The notes beneath the pieces are model-generated. The model searched no databases, had not been told where the DNA came from, and saw only the letters and a program-made list of their open reading frames with translations. From Spirochaetota bacterium (GTDB lineage Bacteria > Spirochaetota > UBA4802 > JAFGDQ01), in contig JAZDKB010000010.1 in the NCBI GenBank assembly GCA_043803405.1, positions 1 through 64,000 on the forward strand: 64,000 nucleotides of DNA. Direction: 5' to 3'. This document shows, one piece after another, positions 1 through 7,283 of this stretch. Numbering within the stretch: position 1 is the first letter of the stretch; the number at the start of each line of letters is the position of its first letter. Made by a program: the position numbers and the translations under genes.

Positions 1-83
1 TTTTCCCCTGATCTATTAATCTGCCCTCCAAATAAACACCGTATCTTTACCCTTATAGACAAAATATCTTCTTAGTCGGGCTT

Positions 84-142
84 CTTGAACATTGGATAGA
101 GTACGATCAAAAAACGATCGTCTCTATCCTTTATTGTTAGGC
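84..142 (-). other. Short, atypical attC-like site (59 bp) ending cassette 3
   Basis: Minus strand GCCTAAC (R'', contains the ORF stop TAA), then hairpin GGATAGAGACGATC / GATCGTACTCTATCC with one bulged base, then GTTCAAG (deviates from GTTRRRY). GCCTAAC is complementary to the GTTAGGC that starts this cassette (913-919). Confidence 0.55.
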
Positions 143-880
143 ACATTTGAAAATGATTAATAAAGCTGCACCGATAATTAGTAAAAAACCTGCTATAGCT
201 ATTAATATACGCAACCAAGTAGCATTGACTTTATTTATAATTACTTGCTTGATAAGATGATAACCAACCATGGTGATTGAGAATGCAAATACGAAATAAA
301 CCAGATTTAAAACAATTTTGTTTATATCCATAATTACTCCCTTACAAGAAAATTCCCTATATGTTAATAATGACCATATTGCATATAACATAACTGATAA
401 GTAAAGCCAATCTAAACCTAAAGAATGTGAAGCAGGTAGGAATGAAAGTTTAAATTTATTTAAAAATTTTGGTTTATCTTTAATTTCTTCTCTTAACTCT
501 TCTGTAAGTTTTTTCGGTAATTTTTCCTGTAATTCTCTCTTCCAAAAACGACAAAAAAGTGGCAATTCTTTTATTTCATCTTTTTCGTTATATCGAATTA
601 ATTTCCAATGTTCTTTTTCAATTTCTATAGCACGTTTCCCCATTTGTGTATATAGAGCTCTATTTCTTCGTTCTATAATATACATTGCAACAGTAATTGC
701 AATAATCAATAAGGCATTTTCTGGCGGCATTTCTTTTTGAACAATAAGACCAAGAGCTGCTAAATAAAAACCAAGTAAGGTAAAACGATGTGAGACAATT
801 GAATTGTGATAATCGATTAGAGAAGAATATTCGGTTCGAAGATTCTCAAAGTCCTGTTTATCTTTTTCGTCCTGATCCAT
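137..880 (-). CDS. Integron cassette ORF, hypothetical multi-TM membrane protein
   Basis: 247 aa with several hydrophobic helices, SD AGGAGG upstream, stop codon inside the R'' box, low GC. Confidence 0.75.
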   Translation of the reverse strand: MDQDEKDKQDFENLRTEYSSLIDYHNSIVSHRFTLLGFYLAALGLIVQKEMPPENALLIIAITVAMYIIERRNRALYTQMGKRAIEIEKEHWKLIRYNEKDEIKELPLFCRFWKRELQEKLPKKLTEELREEIKDKPKFLNKFKLSFLPASHSLGLDWLYLSVMLYAIWSLLTYREFSCKGVIMDINKIVLNLVYFVFAFSITMVGYHLIKQVIINKVNATWLRILIAIAGFLLIIGAALLIIFKCA

Positions 881-912
881 TACGCAACCTCCTTTCCTTG
901 TTTACAAATTCA

Positions 913-1043
913 GCCTAACTAACGGCTAAGCTGTACTGCGGGTACGAGCACCGACTTTGATAACTTATCAATTAGATTTTGACCGCCGACGTCCGACCGC
1001 CGCCAAATAGCCAGCAGTATCAGGCTTGAGCCGATTGTTAGAA
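913..1043 (-). other. attC site (131 bp)
   Basis: Minus strand TTCTAAC...GTTAGGC. Arms CGGCT-C-AAGC-C-TG-A-TACTGC / GCAGTA-CA-GCTT-AGCCG pair with extrahelical bases. Homologous to 1756-1885. Confidence 0.9.
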
Positions 1044-1073
1044 GTCTTGAATTCATATTATAGATGGAAAAAC

Positions 1074-1727
1074 CTATTTGCATTTTTCGATGATTTTTTG
1101 TGCTCTTTTTTGAGTTACCTTCTTTGAATATTCAATATATTCATTTGCGAATTCAGTAACAACTTTCTTTTGAGATGAGTTTAAGAATTCTACTATTTTT
1201 AAAAATCCTTCCAATATCCAATCTTGTTCATTCATTATTACATTATTTGTAGATTCTACTAATAGTTTATATGCTTTTTGTGCATTTTCTTTTGATATCG
1301 TTCCCCAATTTCCTAAATACATATCTATTGCACCAACTAAACATAATTGTCCATTTGTCTTTTCCAGAATATATTTTTTTGCATAAGGTAATGCTTTTTC
1401 AGCAATGGTCGGTTCTATTTTTGAGCAATAGCCAAGCGTCATGAAAATCATCCATTTTGTTTGGGGTTCTTCTGCTTCCAGTGCTGATAAAATTCTTTCC
1501 AGATATGGTGCAACTAAATCTGGTCTTTTTTCTGCGACACATTCTATAATTTTTGCAGCACCGGCTCTAATATGCTTAACTGTAGTTTTTTTTAGTTCAT
1601 AATTTACAAATGGTATAGTATCAGATAATAGTTTATTATTTCCATTTAGGATTTCTTTGGCAATTTCCTTTCCCAACGCACTTGATACTGTTCCTTTGTT
1701 ATTTGCTAACCTATCAAATAATGTCAT
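1074..1727 (-). CDS. Integron cassette ORF, alpha-helical (HEAT/ARM-repeat-like) hypothetical protein
   Basis: 217 aa single ORF between two attC sites; amphipathic helical repeats (RAGAAKIIECVAEKRPDLVAPYLERI). Confidence 0.75.
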   Translation of the reverse strand: MTLFDRLANNKGTVSSALGKEIAKEILNGNNKLLSDTIPFVNYELKKTTVKHIRAGAAKIIECVAEKRPDLVAPYLERILSALEAEEPQTKWMIFMTLGYCSKIEPTIAEKALPYAKKYILEKTNGQLCLVGAIDMYLGNWGTISKENAQKAYKLLVESTNNVIMNEQDWILEGFLKIVEFLNSSQKKVVTEFANEYIEYSKKVTQKRAQKIIEKCK

Positions 1728-1755
1728 GGTTCTTCCTTTTGCACCAAAAACGTCC

Positions 1756-1885
1756 TTCTAACTAAAATTTCAGCTGTGCTTGCGACTGCTGGCACCGACT
1801 TTAAAAGCCAACCGATTAGACTTTGACCTCTCAGCTCCGACCGTCGCCACGAGCGAGCAAGCATCCGCTGCAAATAATGTTAGAT
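1756..1885 (-). other. attC site (130 bp)
   Basis: Minus strand ATCTAAC...GTTAGAA. Shares blocks CTAACTAA, GCACCGACTTT, ATTAGAnTTTGACC and TCCGACCGnCGCCA (plus strand) with 913-1043. Confidence 0.9.
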
Positions 1886-1918
1886 TTTATTAATTTTCCC
1901 GTTATTAACTAATACGAT

Positions 1919-2515
1919 CTATTTGTTATTCCAATCCGAAGAAAAATTAAAATTGGTCACTATTCCATTTTGATCAAGACTAATTATTACGTCTTTACTA
2001 TAAAGTTTTCTGAATAACATTAACCCTTTATATTCGTTGTATACATACTTAAGAAGCTTTCTATCCTTCCCTGCAATAGGATAAATACTGATGCCTGAAG
2101 GCTTCCCTAGAATGTCGATTACTTCTTCCTCTTTAGTTTGTCCTTTCTTTATCTGGTTTAATTTGGTTTCATTAAAGTCAGTGTTATCCTCATTAAAAGA
2201 ACTCATAAATAAATAAGAGATCAGTACATCATTGTAAAAGCTAAATACAATCGTACGTCCTAGTATTTTACCATATAAGTTAGGGGTGCCTCCCGTATAT
2301 GAATATAAAAAATTTATTAAATTTTCATTATTGACCGTTGAAGGTTTTTCTTTATGTGGATTACCAAGCTTTTGCCGGATTTCTTGTATTGTAGTTTTAC
2401 CAAGTATTAAAGAATCATCTGCAGGACGCACAAAATTTGTTCCTGTGGTTACAGTTTTACAACTAAGGCAAATTACCATTGTAATTGCTAGGCTAGTTCC
2501 TTTTAATAATTTCAT
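1919..2515 (-). CDS. Integron cassette lipoprotein with two BamE/SmpA-like repeats
   Basis: SD AAGGAGG favours the ATG at 2515; signal peptide with lipobox-like CLSC; two GkTtxxEv..lGxP repeats. Confidence 0.65.
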   Translation of the reverse strand: MKLLKGTSLAITMVICLSCKTVTTGTNFVRPADDSLILGKTTIQEIRQKLGNPHKEKPSTVNNENLINFLYSYTGGTPNLYGKILGRTIVFSFYNDVLISYLFMSSFNEDNTDFNETKLNQIKKGQTKEEEVIDILGKPSGISIYPIAGKDRKLLKYVYNEYKGLMLFRKLYSKDVIISLDQNGIVTNFNFSSDWNNK

Positions 2516-2612
2516 CACCACAGCCTCCTTCATATATTTAATAGCTTTTACTAATCTCTATTCAATTAACTATTCATTTTATAATAGTGCATTTTTATAA
2601 TCTTCAGAGAAA

Positions 2613-3923
2613 CTAAATCTGTAAAGGCACCAGCGAAAATCCCAACGAAGCTGCCTTTTGTTTAAAATTTCTCAATACACGCTCTTTATACATCTTTTCG
2701 TAATAATCTGCACCTAAATCTTTATATGATTTGCCAGTCTTCATACACATGTAAAACAAACGTGCTATTTTATATGCTGTAGCTGTTATTGCTTTTGGCG
2801 CTCCCATTCTGCTTCGGAGTCTGCGATAAAAAGCTCCAATTGAACTATCACTTCTTCCCGCAGAATAAGCTGCAAGTCTGAATGCTGTCGCTGCTCTGTT
2901 CACTACCTTTTTCGATTTACTGCTTAATATCCGCCCGCCGCTTATTTTACTATTCGGCGATAATCCCAGCCATGATCCAAAATGTTTGTCTGTCGGCCAT
3001 TTATTCATATCAACTCCGACTTCCGATATTATTGTCTCTATGTTATTTATATCAAGACCATCTATTTCTGTAAGATCAACCTTGCATACTGCATGCAGTT
3101 TTGTTCTAATATTTTTCTTGTTGTTCTTATCATTATTCTCATCAGAATTATCATTCGTGTCGCCATTCATCTCATTGATTGTCTTTTCAATCATTTCTTC
3201 GCATTCGCTGATTTTTCGGCTTATGTATTCATACTGGTCAACTTCCTGGCGTAAGCAGAATAATTGTTCTTCCTGATAATTACCTTCGAGTGATTTGGCT
3301 ATTATGTCTGCACTATTTCTTATCCGGGAGCTCTTCAGTTGCGCCAGCTTTAACGGATCTCGTTCACCATCCAATATGCTTCGGATTATTCTCATCCCGG
3401 TAAATCCGGTTATATCTGATATTACTTTATGCAGCTGTATATTCATCTGTATCATGCATTTCTGCATTCTCTGAGTATGTGTTCCTCTGCTTCTTATCAG
3501 GTTTTCCCTGTGCCTTAAATATGTCCTTAATTTGCGTATTACAGGTTCCGGCTGATATGATCCCTGAAGTAAACCGTATGTATGAAGCTGCTGTATCCAT
3601 CGGCTGTCTACAATATCTGTCTTCCTCCCGGATACATTCTTTATGTGCCGGGCATTAACAAGTAATACTTCAAAACCATTCGCTTCCAGTATCTGAAAAA
3701 CAGGTATCCAGTATACTCCGGTGGATTCCATAGCTACTGTCTTTATTCCGCATTCCTTAAGCCACTTTGCCATTCCTTCTATGTCTGCTGTATAACATCC
3801 GAATTTCCGTATGGACTCATCTGTCCTGTCTTCCGGTACTGCTACATAATGAAATTCTGATCCGATATCTATCCCGGCAGCATCTAAATTTATCTGTTTC
3901 AGATCTCCTCTTTCTTTCTTCAT
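2613..3923 (-). CDS. IS110-family DEDD transposase/recombinase
   Basis: GIDIG, AMESTGVYW and KTDIVD give the DEDD tetrad; C-terminal Transposase_20-like GLSPNSKISGG with the conserved Ser. Confidence 0.95.
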   Translation of the reverse strand: MKKERGDLKQINLDAAGIDIGSEFHYVAVPEDRTDESIRKFGCYTADIEGMAKWLKECGIKTVAMESTGVYWIPVFQILEANGFEVLLVNARHIKNVSGRKTDIVDSRWIQQLHTYGLLQGSYQPEPVIRKLRTYLRHRENLIRSRGTHTQRMQKCMIQMNIQLHKVISDITGFTGMRIIRSILDGERDPLKLAQLKSSRIRNSADIIAKSLEGNYQEEQLFCLRQEVDQYEYISRKISECEEMIEKTINEMNGDTNDNSDENNDKNNKKNIRTKLHAVCKVDLTEIDGLDINNIETIISEVGVDMNKWPTDKHFGSWLGLSPNSKISGGRILSSKSKKVVNRAATAFRLAAYSAGRSDSSIGAFYRRLRSRMGAPKAITATAYKIARLFYMCMKTGKSYKDLGADYYEKMYKERVLRNFKQKAASLGFSLVPLQI

Positions 3924-3939
3924 ACTAAGACTTTACCTC

Positions 3940-4175
3940 GCCGATATTATTATTATGAAGTATTCTGATTCAGATTAAGGATAAATGAAATACTCTTCTG
4001 AACGGGATAGCATTATTGCTTCGCCAAATTTTTGTCCTTCTGTCTGAGACTATGCTAACTAACGGGTTCTTGACTCCATAGGTTTTTCAGTCATTTTCAG
4101 AATACTTCACACTTTTTTATCGGCCTGTCTCATCTACGTTTCTCTCATATTTGTCCGGCGGCCGCCGGTGGATTG
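3940..4175 (-). ncRNA. Putative IS110 bridge RNA
   Basis: 13-bp perfect inverted repeat (3956-3968 / 4097-4109) encloses two sub-domains, each with CCCGT followed by a 7-mer ending in AG (TAGTTAG; TCAGAAG). Confidence 0.65.
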
Positions 4176-4230
4176 CTAACACTGCCATATCGTTTATATA
4201 GACAAGTATAAATAACATTTACTTTCTCAA
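4176..4230 (-). other. Candidate attI-like site at the head of the cassette array
   Basis: GTTAG core with no upstream R''/hairpin partner; AT-rich; no further cassettes upstream. Confidence 0.4.
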
Positions 4231-4237
4231 TCAATAA

Positions 4238-4266
4238 TCAATAACTTTCATAATGATATTTGTCAA
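4238..4266 (-). promoter_or_regulatory. Possible cassette promoter (Pc-like)
   Basis: TTGACA-17 bp-TATTGA pointing into the array; weak -10. Confidence 0.3.
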
Positions 4267-4493
4267 TAAAAAACTATCTTCCATATTGGCATCGATTTTA
4301 ATTGTCTTTTGAGAATATCTAAGCAGACCGAGAACAAGAGGTTTAATTGATCTGGAATAGAGTCTTGGCACAACAACTATCAAATTAAAAAAAAAGAATT
4401 AAAAAATACTTATATTATTCCACATTAATTAACAATAATTCGTGATTTCAATTTCTAGATCTATTTGCTTTTCTATAATAATAAACCGGATTT

Positions 4494-5465
4494 TTATCCA
4501 GAATATTGCCCGAATATCTTACAAATTTTTTCTTCGTACCACACCCTGTACGGAAAGAAATCGAAAAAGCCGTTATGACCACCATAAGGCTGAACCAGGC
4601 GCTGTAAATATTTATTGTCTCTAAGGTTATAAACATCCTGAACCGGTATTATGGGATCATCCTCTGAGCTTATAATTGTAACAGGAATATTCAGGTTACT
4701 GAAAACATTATTTAGAAGCGTATATTCTGCATAATAAGCATTTACGGTTTTATATTCTGTATAAAGCGGAACAAAAGTATCCATCATTCCGGTCAAAGAA
4801 TTCATTTCATTTAAACCTTTAAAAGTGTATGTTTCCGGGAATAAAGCCTGTTTTTTAATTAACGATCTCTTCCATTTTTTAATAAAATATTTGCGAATAA
4901 CTGTAATTCTTTCAGTGCTTTCGGTTGATTTCATTGGATCAAGCACAGGGCTAATTGCCGCTACGTGGCGAAGATTTTTAATTTTTTCTTTCCGGTGCTT
5001 AAGCGCAATTCTGAGGGCAAAATTTCCGCCAAGCGAAAATCCGACTAGAAAGAACGGCCTTTTACTGTTCATCGCTGCGACGTTCTTTACTGCGTTAAAT
5101 GTTTCTTCGATCAATGTGGATTTGAAAAGACCTTTATTAAGATGATGTGAATCCCCGTGATCCCGGAGGTTCAGCCTGAAAATATCGAATTTATTTTTAT
5201 AAAGATATTTGGCAGTGCTTACGACGTACGAAGATCGCGAGCTTCCTTCCCATCCGTGAATAAACAAAACTGTTCCCCTGGATGAAGCTCCGGGCTGCTT
5301 TGAGTAATATCCCAGCAGACGTACGCCTTTGCCTCCGTCCACTATTGTTTCCTTCGCGCATCCGGACATGGGATTGCTGCCCATATTCCTCAGCTTTAAG
5401 CTGCCGAATACGCTTTGCAGAATCGGATTGCGAAAAAATATTTTGGGAACAAATTTGTCGTTCAT
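4494..5465 (-). CDS. YheT-like alpha/beta hydrolase
   Basis: HGWEGSS, nucleophile elbow GFSLGG, DDPII, GGHNG. Confidence 0.85.
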   Translation of the reverse strand: MNDKFVPKIFFRNPILQSVFGSLKLRNMGSNPMSGCAKETIVDGGKGVRLLGYYSKQPGASSRGTVLFIHGWEGSSRSSYVVSTAKYLYKNKFDIFRLNLRDHGDSHHLNKGLFKSTLIEETFNAVKNVAAMNSKRPFFLVGFSLGGNFALRIALKHRKEKIKNLRHVAAISPVLDPMKSTESTERITVIRKYFIKKWKRSLIKKQALFPETYTFKGLNEMNSLTGMMDTFVPLYTEYKTVNAYYAEYTLLNNVFSNLNIPVTIISSEDDPIIPVQDVYNLRDNKYLQRLVQPYGGHNGFFDFFPYRVWYEEKICKIFGQYSG

Positions 5466-5583
5466 AGAATTAATCTTTTATCTAAAAAATAAATGATATA
5501 CTTTAAGTTGTTTTATTTCCACAAGTTAAAAAATTAATTCAATAACTATTTTTTCTTAAAATTTACCTTTTACAAAATAAAAT

Positions 5584-5610
5584 AAAAAAAAGGCACGCAG
5601 TGCGTGCCTT
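5584..5610 (-). terminator. Rho-independent terminator
   Basis: AAGGCACGCA-G-TGCGTGCCTT hairpin followed by a T-run on the minus strand, just after the stop at 5643. Confidence 0.75.
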
Positions 5611-5642
5611 AATAAATTATAAAACAGATTTTTTTATTTTTC

Positions 5643-7283
5643 TTAGCTATTTAAAATTTTCTTTGCAGATTCATCCTGGGCGTCGGTAATATAAGTAATA
5701 CCGGTTTCTGCTTCAGTTTCTCTGTTTGCAGACCAAATATCGTTGCGTGAAATCTGATCGAGAGAGAATTTCCTTGCTCCTGCCATTAGCTGCTGTAAAC
5801 CTGCAGCAAGTTTGTCCGCCGCTGTCCATGCTGCGATCGCGCCGTAAGGAATGTTCTTCATTTCGGATGCGCCGACTTTCTTCTGAACATCGTAGTAACC
5901 GGCAAAGATTTCCTCAACTTTCTCACCGTTTTCAAGAACAGTATTCGGCAGTTTATCCCAGTTCCCATTTAAATTTGCTTTTCTGTCCGGATATAGAACG
6001 CCTTCAATGTTTGATCCAAGGAAGCCCGGTATCATAAGAGCTCTGCCCATGCAGACCAGCTTTGTGTAAGGAGCGCCGAGTGCGAGTGCCTTGAATATGT
6101 GGTCCTCTTTTGCAAGTCCGCCTGCGAATGAAAGATCTACAACATTATTGCCTTTTGCGGCAAGAATAGAAGCATATTCATAAGCTTTCGAATGCAGATA
6201 TATTGAAGGAACACCCCACGATCCCATCATGTTCCATGGGCTCATGCCAGTGCCGCCCCCTGAACCGTCGATTGTTAGCAGATCAAGTCCATTATCTGTT
6301 GCAAGTTTTATAGAAAGAGCAAGCGCCTCCATTCCATACGAGCCTGTCTTTAATGTAATTCTCTTATATCCGATCTTTCTTAAATATTTAACAGCTTTTG
6401 TAAACGCATCCATTACAGAATCCGCATTTGAAAGGTTGGTGTATCCTAATCTGCTATGACGGGCAAATGATTTAATAGCACCGTGTTTAAATGCTTCCTG
6501 AACTTCAGGTTTTGTAGGATCCGGATCAACAACATATCCTCTTTTCTTAAGAAACAGTGCATATTCAAGGTCATTAACCTGGATTTCTCCGCCGATATCC
6601 TTTGCTCCCTGTCCCCATTTTAATTCCATGACAACCTTATCGCCGTATTTATCTACGATGTATTCAGCTACGCCGTTTCGTGTGTCTTCCACGTTCATCT
6701 GAACAATAATCGCGCCATATCCGTCAAAATATCGAAGATACGTATCAATTCTGCGGTCCATTTCCGGAGCTTTACTTATTTTTCCGTTTTCGATTATTGC
6801 CTGTTTATCAATACCTGCAACGTTTTCTCCGATAACGATCGGGTAACCAACAAGCGCGGCTCCAATAGAGAATGATTCCCAGTATTTTGCTGCAATGAAA
6901 GTCGAACCAAGCGCCCCGGTCATAATGGGCATTTTAAATTTAGTTTTTTCTTTTCTGCCGAATTCACCTTCCAAATTTACATTCGGGAAGATACAGTCAT
7001 CGGGATCATTCGATAAGCCTTTTGCCAATCCATTCGAACCATATAAATATCCGTTAATTCTTAATGAGTTATATGATACTCCTACATGGGTTGTGTTTGC
7101 GCTTCCTGCCGTAATTGTTCCAAAATCCCGCGGATAAAGCAGTTTTCTGCCTTTCATGCACGAAACCCAGGTTTCACATTTTCCCTGGCAGTCAGCTCTG
7201 CATAATGTACACAGGCCGGACTCGCACGGATTGCCGCGATTTATAGTACCTAATGCATCGTTACTTTTTGCCCATTCAATCAT
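5643..7283 (-). CDS. FMN-binding glutamate synthase family protein (stand-alone FMN barrel, Cys-rich N-terminus)
   Basis: ELKWGQGAK, DGSGGGTG, FAGG..KALALGA; N-terminal CESGLCTLCRADCQGKC; SD GGAG supports the ATG at 7283. Confidence 0.85.
   Translation of the reverse strand: MIEWAKSNDALGTINRGNPCESGLCTLCRADCQGKCETWVSCMKGRKLLYPRDFGTITAGSANTTHVGVSYNSLRINGYLYGSNGLAKGLSNDPDDCIFPNVNLEGEFGRKEKTKFKMPIMTGALGSTFIAAKYWESFSIGAALVGYPIVIGENVAGIDKQAIIENGKISKAPEMDRRIDTYLRYFDGYGAIIVQMNVEDTRNGVAEYIVDKYGDKVVMELKWGQGAKDIGGEIQVNDLEYALFLKKRGYVVDPDPTKPEVQEAFKHGAIKSFARHSRLGYTNLSNADSVMDAFTKAVKYLRKIGYKRITLKTGSYGMEALALSIKLATDNGLDLLTIDGSGGGTGMSPWNMMGSWGVPSIYLHSKAYEYASILAAKGNNVVDLSFAGGLAKEDHIFKALALGAPYTKLVCMGRALMIPGFLGSNIEGVLYPDRKANLNGNWDKLPNTVLENGEKVEEIFAGYYDVQKKVGASEMKNIPYGAIAAWTAADKLAAGLQQLMAGARKFSLDQISRNDIWSANRETEAETGITYITDAQDESAKKILNS

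Follow-up and report, generated by a model that had tools for sequence, protein, structure and literature searches.

We describe an insertion sequence (IS) of the IS110 family in a Spirochaetota bacterium (assembly GCA_043803405.1, 3.98 Mb in 54 contigs), located on the minus strand of contig JAZDKB010000010.1 immediately upstream of three integron cassettes. The stretch of DNA analysed, referred to as the window, comprises the first 64 kb (64,000 nucleotides, nt) of this contig (C10). The 5' non-coding end of the IS contains an 8-nt segment, TTAGTTAG, whose counterparts in related elements repeat the sequence found directly in front of the insertion, and the same eight nucleotides form the R' end of attC sites, the recombination sites of the cassettes, in this genome. 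Close relatives of the IS are preceded by attC-type hairpins. We consider it likely that the IS is a bridge-RNA-guided IS110-type element whose left target guide matches the R' end of its host's attC sites, and that it belongs to an attC-seeking IS110-type lineage distinct from the attC-homing group of the related IS1111 type.

The IS and its junctions are defined by the following positions.

2604..4175, minus strand: body of the IS110-type element, 1,572 bp (1,574 bp if one core dinucleotide is counted in)
4176..4177, minus strand: core dinucleotide AG (CT on the plus strand) at the 5' junction
2602..2603, minus strand: core dinucleotide AG (CT on the plus strand) at the 3' junction
4178..4183, minus strand: left target of the window copy, AGTGTT, or AGTGTTAG with the core; 5 of 8 positions agree with the guide, and only from G|TTAG on
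2596..2601, minus strand: right target, ATTATA, the first bases of cassette 3 past TTAG; its ATT complements the AAT of that cassette's R''
2604..2611, minus strand: left donor end of the window copy, CTCTGA, differing at one base (2606) from the CTCAGA of the other copies and the donor guide

The first-pass annotation of the window had bounded the element by the CT dinucleotides at 2602-2603 and 4176-4177, and both the coordinates and the strings are correct. On the minus strand, the 5' junction of the window copy reads GGCAGTGTT-AG-CAATCC and the 3' junction CTCTGA-AG-ATTATAAAA. Five more fragments of the IS are found at contig ends, two with a 5' end (C53, C13) and three with a 3' end (C51, C50, C19), and the genome contains at least four copies. 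Their ends are the same as those of the window copy: in transposase orientation, all three known 5' junctions have the form flank-GTT-AG-CAATCCACCGG (GTT-AG-CAATCC) and all four known 3' junctions the form TTTCTC(A/T)GA-AG-flank. The flanks on C13 and C50 represent the two halves of a dispersed palindromic repeat, for which 24 uninterrupted paralogues cross the junction. GTTAG is present at the insertion point in only two of these 24, and the closest empty paralogue (C27:987-1176, 87%) reads CCTGGTTAGTTTTTCAT, with a single GTTAG. Because the uninterrupted paralogue has GTTAG once while the occupied site reads GTT-AG-IS-AG, GTT-AG is target sequence, only AG is doubled, and the IS consists of 1,572 bp plus one AG; apart from the shared core, insertion leaves no target duplication. 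The C53 and C51 flanks pair on an intergenic repeat that has a contiguous paralogue at C9:171846-171926, and the partner of the C19 3' flank is absent from the assembly. As a separate observation, the palindromic repeat is about 130-200 nt long, bears 25-nt terminal inverted repeats and occurs in at least 24 copies, one of them being the IS target; besides the C27 paralogue, examples lie at C18:50761-50965 and C6:40224-40343.

The guides were located by comparison with related elements, for which 79 loci from genomes and 80 from metagenomes were fetched, most of them 47-56% identical and spread over many phyla. In the 5' non-coding end we used the anchor CCCG-N8-(C/T)ATGG. In 18 of the 19 loci first found with this anchor, the N8 segment was repeated 111-131 nt upstream, immediately before the start of the IS, and in those 18 loci N8 ended in AG, although the pattern had left these positions free. 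Of 160 loci examined, 85 lack the pair formed by this anchor and another some 60 nt downstream of it; the remaining 75 reduce to 59 distinct combinations of guide and flank. Comparing guide and left flank at positions 2-8 gave no mismatch in 40 of these sets, one in 12, two in four and three in three. Agreement within one mismatch was thus seen in 52 of 59 sets, as compared to 98 of 1,668 control pairings of guides with the flanks of other elements (none in six, one in 92). The second N8 segment equals the 3' end of the IS itself plus AG in 17 of 18 relatives. According to PMC11208160, the left guide of a bridge RNA has the top-strand sequence of the left arm plus the core. By this rule, the two N8 segments are therefore the left guides for target and donor, and their core is AG. 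Together with the predicted bridge RNA, they are arranged in the window as follows.

3924..4175, minus strand: 5' non-coding end, 252 nt, carrying the predicted bridge RNA
3957..4108, minus strand: predicted bridge-RNA core, a closing stem of 12-15 bp (GAAGUAUUCUGA / UCAGAAUACUUC) around two domains in the single-sequence fold
4062->4055, minus strand: left target guide TTAGTTAG, corresponding to a 6-nt left target plus core AG, directly 3' of a conserved CCCG
4002->3995, minus strand: left donor guide TTCAGAAG, corresponding to the IS's own 3' end plus core AG, directly 3' of a conserved CCCG

Three copies (C51, C50 and C19) have CTCAGA-AG at their 3' ends, to which the donor guide corresponds, whereas the window copy reads CTCTGA-AG. 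With this single base change at 2606, the window copy may be less suited as a substrate of its own bridge RNA, whose donor guide carries TCAGA-AG. A consensus fold of five close relatives predicts 53 pairs, among them a closing stem of 15 bp, and places one left guide in each of two domains; applied to 47 diverse relatives, RNAalifold returned a poor consensus, and the usable one came from the five close relatives only.

The link to integrons emerges from the cassette array that follows the IS. On the minus strand, from high to low coordinates, an alpha/beta-hydrolase gene (4494-5465) is followed by a 308-nt AT-rich spacer, the IS and three cassettes with open reading frames (ORFs) at 2533->1919, 1727->1074 and 880->137. 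Two attC sites of about 130 nt lie between these ORFs, together with the R'' core of a third.

1919..2533, minus strand: cassette 3 ORF, 204 amino acids (aa), BamE-like domain; first cassette past the IS
1755..1886, minus strand: attC of cassette 3, R'' AATCTAAC ... R' TTAGTTAG|AAGG; nhmmer E 2.4e-28
1074..1727, minus strand: cassette 2 ORF, 217 aa, without a Pfam family
912..1044, minus strand: attC of cassette 2, R'' CTTCTAAC ... R' CCGTTAGTTAG|GCTG; nhmmer E 1.6e-25
137..880, minus strand: cassette 1 ORF, 247 aa, without a Pfam family
136..143, minus strand: R'' of cassette 1, TGCCTAAC, 7/8 complement of its own cassette start

Both full attC sites carry R'' and R' cores, fold end to end and are co-oriented with the ORFs. 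The fold of the cassette 2 attC (912-1044) has an energy z of -3.42, with 0 of 200 shuffles equally good; in the cassette 3 attC, CTAAC pairs with GTTAG, at z -1.26 and with 25 of 200 shuffles equally good. As the first-pass annotation had noticed, the start of each cassette complements its R'' core: GTTAGAAG (1762->1755) and CTTCTAAC (1044->1037) agree in 8/8 positions for cassette 2, GTTAGGCT (919->912) and TGCCTAAC (143->136) in 7/8 for cassette 1. For cassette 3 this holds once the IS is removed, since excising the window copy plus one AG gives the predicted minus-strand product GGCAGT-GTTAGATT-ATAAAA, in which GTTAGATT is an 8/8 complement of R'' AATCTAAC (1886->1879). The guide region of the IS and the cassette 2 attC, which is unoccupied, have 11 nt in common (CCGTTAGTTAG).

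To survey the genome, an attC profile was built from six sequences, namely four attC sites of this genome and the insertion flanks of two metagenomic relatives (L119 and L120, see below). It detected 13 sites at E < 1e-3. The R' end is TTAGTTAG in four of them (window 1765, window 922, C9:279827 and C9:281500), GTCGTTAG in one (C45), and TTCGTTAA, GTCGTTAA and TTAGTTAA in one each; the remaining five R' ends are degenerate or different, for example TTCGTTGG at C9:150649. In the whole genome TTAGTTAG occurs 23 times. Three occurrences are the guide inside IS copies, and 4 of the other 20 are the attC R' ends. An attC covariance model (R1) went unused: RNAalifold found no base pair in the 11-site alignment, so the model was one of sequence only.

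Close relatives elsewhere extend this correspondence. The metagenomic element L119 (95% aa identity) carries the guide TTAGTTAG and follows the flank ...CCTTAGTT-AG, its left target TTAGTT-AG matching the guide in 8/8 positions; the flank forms a 123-nt end-to-end hairpin (z -2.39, 0 of 200 shuffles). L120 (metagenomic, 89% aa) has the guide TTCGTTAG and the left target GTCGTT-AG, at the end of a 130-nt CTAAC...GTTAG hairpin (z -3.54, 0 of 200 shuffles). L121 (metagenomic, 87% aa) has the same guide TTCGTTAG behind a 21-nt flank, CGCAGCTGAAGCTTGTCGTT-AG, the last 20 nt of which, counted by eye, are identical in 18 positions to the R' end of the attC on C45. The two guide variants TTAGTTAG and TTCGTTAG hence correspond to R'-end variants (TTAGTTAG and GTCGTTAG) among the genome's 13 attC-family sites. 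Behind an 88% relative in a genome of the same genus (G001) come ORFs and, at a distance of 1.7 kb, a co-oriented attC-like hairpin (L031:3195-3320). In total, five of eight insertion sites in the close lineage have a cassette or attC context: the window, L119, L120, L121 and G001. The more distant L122 (70%) differs in its guide, TATTCGAG, which is matched by a flank that is not an att site, CATTCGAG; the copies in G006 follow CATGTT-AG in non-att flanks.

Further remnants and arrangements were noted in related elements. Behind the 88% relative in G001 (contig C73), the final 69 nt of that element are repeated in tandem (L031:1409-1477), an arrangement suggestive of insertion into another copy with later recombination. 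G002 (contig C5) contains two solitary 3'-end remnants of a related IS, 130-145 nt long and 1.3 kb apart (L023:1501-1631 and 2818-2961); a start codon and a sequence resembling a ribosome-binding site come after the first, and a palindromic repeat of the type targeted on C13/C50 comes after the second. In a Dehalococcoidia metagenome-assembled genome (MAG; L035), an element is directly followed by a second copy as a head-to-tail dimer. In an Endozoicomonas MAG (L051-L069), a 53% relative is preceded by TCAGA-AG or a one-base variant in 9 of 11 loci inspected; in L058 and L062 the junction lies outside the stretch inspected.

In the mechanism that we favour, the 252-nt 5' non-coding end would hold two 8-nt left guides, TTAGTTAG for the target and TTCAGAAG for the donor, and the segment would be transcribed and act as a bridge RNA. 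The IS would insert in cassette orientation at ...TTAGTT-AG|..., duplicating nothing but the shared AG. Its insertion point would fall two bases past the core GTT and hence, relative to the integrase crossover G|TT, be displaced by four bases towards the cassette. The RNA would adopt the predicted fold, a circular intermediate would be formed, and cassette expression might be affected.

The protein encoded by the IS fits this assignment.

2613..3923, minus strand: transposase gene, 436 aa, DEDD/RuvC-like IS110 RNA-guided transposase

The transposase contains the Pfam domains PF01548 (DEDD_Tnp_IS110, E 1.9e-22) and PF02371 (Transposase_20, E 3.1e-8) and scores 245 bits against NCBIfam NF033542 'IS110 family RNA-guided transposase' (cut-off 140). 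It matches the IS621 transposase (8wt6) weakly, with E 2.3e-5 over residues 16-163 in the N-terminal domain. The non-coding ends of the IS measure 252 nt on the 5' and 9 nt on the 3' side of the gene, and a comparison of the two 60-nt ends revealed no sub-terminal inverted repeats above chance, the best match of 10 nt with one mismatch being equalled or beaten in 13 of 200 shuffles. PMC11187229 gives transposase lengths of 330-350 aa for the IS1111 type and of 395-455 aa for a subgroup of the IS110 type. By the criteria of that source, the sequence features of the IS are those of the IS110 type, in the 395-455-aa subgroup, and not of the IS1111 type. The first-pass annotation had likewise assigned the element to the IS110 group, with a 5' non-coding end and no inverted repeats, and had named the known attC-targeting elements as members of the IS1111 type, in agreement with PMC11187229 and PMC11089894. 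That the IS is itself a member of this known IS1111-attC group (ISPst6, ISKpn4, ISPa25 and relatives) would be in keeping with the common DEDD transposase superfamily and the common habit of inserting at one end of attC sites (PMC11187229), but three defining features contradict it: the transposase gene has its long non-coding region upstream instead of downstream, the ends show no sub-terminal inverted repeats of 11-13 bp above chance, and 436 aa stand against 330-350 aa. We regard such membership as extremely improbable.

Matches to the IS occur in 7 of 101 relative genomes, this genome included, and are mostly diverged or pieces at contig ends; matches to its non-coding end occur in 3 of 401 genomes sampled across the phylum, again including this one. 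In a plasmid collection, the best relatives of the transposase are about 53% identical and annotated merely as 'IS110 family transposase'. Rfam has no family for the non-coding end, the sole match within positions 1-6000 being a sub-threshold ctRNA_pT181 at 5576-5650.

A different reading of the targeting data is that the IS inserts at any (T)AGTT-AG-like word; since the integron core takes the form GTTAG here, both the cassette boundary and the likeness of the guide to attC would be incidental. A number of observations, collected here and in the following paragraph, weigh against the attC-seeking reading, and several of them fit such generic short-word targeting. In this genome, only one of at least four copies lies at a cassette boundary; the C13/C50 copy in the dispersed palindromic repeat and the C53/C51 copy in the intergenic repeat are both outside att sites, and no attC-family match was found near the contig ends of C13/C50, C53/C51 or C19, the last known from its 3' flank only. 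The four attC R' ends with a perfect 8/8 match to the guide are all unoccupied, and TAGTTAG occurs 83 times in the genome, with only four TTAGTTAG sites being attC ends. The non-att targets of L122 and the G006 copies point in the same direction. Close relatives are few, four besides this genome, and the flanks of L119 and L120 are called attC from their hairpins and core motifs only; sequence profiles from this genome's own attC sites miss both. The same profiles returned nothing across 174 loci at E <= 0.01 or <= 1 and, in the five closest loci, a weak match in L031 only. A hairpin scan of other IS flanks also found nothing, with a positive control that recovered one of two full attC sites (none in a stricter first version). 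In the consensus fold of the bridge RNA, compensatory changes affect only 4 of the 53 pairs, and the fold is for this reason a prediction, while a search in 17 elements found no consistent 5-8-mers complementary to core plus right arm that could serve as right target or right donor guides. To the right of the core, 11 Endozoicomonas copies of a relative show no conservation, the left target (C)TCAGA-AG being common to them, and in the 47-relative alignment no co-variation with the right donor is seen for the conserved UGGUG motifs in front of each left guide. Against generic targeting stand the five of eight close-lineage sites in a cassette or attC context, compared to about 1 in 20 matching words in the genome, the agreement of the entire 8-mer with the attC R' end beyond mere GTTAG, and the second guide variant TTCGTTAG, which fits a second R'-end variant. 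On balance, we hold generic targeting to be unlikely. The first-pass annotation had proposed that the IS targets the GTTAG core of att sites; a lineage aimed at integron sites is what we, too, consider probable, but the word recognised is (T)TAGTT+AG and not the GTTAG core as such, and two copies lie elsewhere than in att sites.

The window site deserves separate consideration, being the poorest match to the guide: AGTGTT-AG agrees in 5/8 positions, with two mismatches in positions 2-8, and the identity starts exactly at G|TTAG, the three bases to its left all being mismatched. An attC fold is not seen in the upstream flank (4176-4305; z +0.35, 118 of 200 shuffles equally good). It is conceivable, though we are doubtful, that this junction is secondary, the IS having first entered a normal attC R' end (TTAGTT-AG) and the left sequence having been replaced later, so that the hydrolase-side flank was never a bridge-RNA target; homologous recombination between IS copies, an adjacent deletion of an upstream attC and cassettes, or integrase moving a cassette with the IS inside are routes that could tentatively be invoked. 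Besides the abrupt start of the identity and the missing upstream hairpin, such a history is favoured by the hydrolase gene, which in G001 and G005 has other neighbours and no cassettes beside it, the G001 neighbour being found on contig C18 here; by the excess of four 3' over three 5' IS ends in the assembly, which leaves one 5' flank missing; and by the base change in the left donor end. As to the complementarity of the cassette 3 start, GTT-AG precedes every IS copy, so that joining any 5' flank would restore GTTAG, and the independent evidence for the 8-bp match is confined to the ATT after the IS, expected by chance about once in 64; start/R'' complementarity does not prove that the window flanks were once contiguous. 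No contig of four runs joins 2603 to 4178, as the empty site (GGCAGTGTTAGATTATAAAA; GGCAGTGTTAG-ATTATAAAA) would, and none contains a circle junction with the IS ends abutted (for example CTCAGA-AG-CAATCC). A secondary junction is opposed by a contig of run X3, whose IS is about 95% identical and whose 5' flank, like that of the window copy, contains TTTATACTTGT at an almost equal distance, yet ends in TTAGTT-AG, an 8/8 target. This suggests an ordinary guided insertion here and subsequent drift of the flank, and two mismatches in positions 2-8 are also found among natural insertions (4 of 59 sets). A further view starts from the position of the IS four bases to the cassette side of G|TT, which makes it formally the first part of cassette 3, so that transport by integrase is possible in principle. 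The IS would then travel with the downstream cassette from array to array and host to host, and the window copy would be a relocated IS-plus-cassette unit at the leading position of its array, which would explain both the start of guide identity at G|TTAG and the absence of an attC upstream. Cassette insertion by integrase outside att sites has been reported (bioRxiv 10.1101/2022.09.11.507474); we give this view only a slim chance. Our preferred reading for the lineage as a whole remains bridge-RNA-guided insertion at attC R' ends.

A separate observation on the right arm concerns the 8-mer AAAAACCT (window 4080-4087, minus strand), which lies on the 5' side of the domain that holds the target guide. 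Its complement is AG+GTTTTT, and the first seven bases of this complement, AG+GTTTT, equal core plus right flank of two independent insertions (C51 and L121); complementarity of this kind is absent from more distant relatives. In this lineage, AAAAACCT may be a right guide, or the match may be due to chance.

With regard to expression, the IS is co-oriented with the cassettes and the transposase stop codon lies 9 nt from the end of the IS. By consensus match only, a promoter-like site spans the IS/cassette junction (2625->2597), with its -35 TTTACA in the IS and its -10 GATTAT in the flank, facing the cassettes. A second promoter-like site lies upstream of the IS (4234->4205), and the scan as a whole was at chance level, with 12 sites compared to 11.2 expected. 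The first-pass annotation had located the IS between a putative promoter and all cassettes: the IS indeed sits exactly within a GTTAG core that lies upstream of all three, but the promoter-like site at 4234->4205 does not exceed chance.

No integrase gene accompanies the window array, where the alpha/beta-hydrolase gene lies upstream of the IS instead. The sole integron integrase of the genome is encoded at C9:269625-270626 (TIGR02249, 453 bits) in the orientation of its cassettes, and behind it lies an attI-like region that has GTTAGGCAGT as its first core. Within C9:269625-271200, a 127-aa ORF without a Pfam family comes after the integrase gene, then a region with repeated TGTCTA...TAGACA motifs that precedes the first GTTAG core (271144); the 5' flank of the window IS contains one motif, TTGTCTATATAAAC, that is similar to these repeats.

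The other end of the window array borders on different DNA.

1..135, plus strand: end of a different multi-copy element, separate from the IS, abutting the CTAAC/GTTAG core of the last attC

Window positions 1-140 are identical to the end of contig C9 (282125-282264) and have precisely GTTAG as their final bases, which on the opposite strand is the R'' core of the last attC. The same stretch, at 91-100% identity, is found at contig ends in G005 and in one G001 contig; in G005 it runs on into a Y2/IS91-type transposase gene (PF04986, PF14319) beside a tyrosine-recombinase fragment, and contigs of run X1 diverge immediately past window position 140. Because of this recurrence at contig ends, the junction with a Y2/IS91-type gene and the divergence at 140, integron cores seem to be adjoined at the start of the window by another mobile element, one unrelated to the IS.

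Compared to known systems, the IS combines traits that have been described separately. Like the IS1111-attC group (Tetu & Holmes 2008 and Post & Hall 2009, as cited in PMC11187229 and PMC11089894), it has a DEDD transposase and an RNA guide, makes no target duplication and inserts in a fixed orientation at one end of attC. Those elements carry a seekRNA guide in the 3' non-coding region, sub-terminal inverted repeats and transposases of 330-350 aa, whereas here the guide region is at the 5' end, such repeats are lacking and the protein is longer. With IS621 and other IS110 bridge-RNA recombinases (PMC11208160), it shares a 5' non-coding end with target and donor domains, left guides composed of left arm plus 2-nt core, and a core common to target and donor. 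IS621, with which protein similarity is confined to the weak N-terminal match, differs in its transposase of 326-328 aa, its CT core and its target resembling repetitive extragenic palindromes (REPs); here, the core is AG, the left guides follow CCCG and contiguous right guides were not found. In transposase length, upstream non-coding region and lack of inverted repeats, the IS resembles the IS110 subgroup with transposases of 395-455 aa (PMC11187229), for which the literature searched, as far as accessible, reports no attC-targeting member, in contrast to the attC R' end in the present guide. The C13/C50 copy, central in a dispersed palindromic repeat, recalls ISPpu10 and REP-targeting IS110 elements (bioRxiv 10.64898/2026.03.19.712850), and attC sites and REPs are both hairpin-forming DNA. 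Group IIC-attC introns (PMC7923331) are likewise a class of mobile elements that homes to attC. Retroelements with a ribozyme, those introns are unrelated to the IS in sequence and mechanism. In the accessible literature on IS110/IS1111, attC, integrons and bridge RNA, supplements of which could contain one, we found no IS110-type element aimed at attC. The bridge-RNA mechanism and, for the sister group, the attC niche are already known, and it is their combination, the position at the R' end and the natural co-variation of guide and attC that are, as far as searched, new.

In the accessible literature, attC-homing ISs have so far been described for the IS1111 type only; if our reading is true, an independent IS110-type lineage reaches the same niche via a 5' bridge RNA. 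The guides TTAGTTAG and TTCGTTAG, which follow two attC variants, would represent a case of natural retargeting. For the bridge-recombinase field, the relatives form a large and easily parsed subfamily, with left guides after CCCG, an AG core and apparently little specificity for the right arm, whose target here is a short word in hairpin-forming DNA. For integron biology, the IS offers a readable case of a cassette-array parasite outside the Proteobacteria, and it raises the question of whether such elements ride inside cassettes and whether they block or drive cassette expression.

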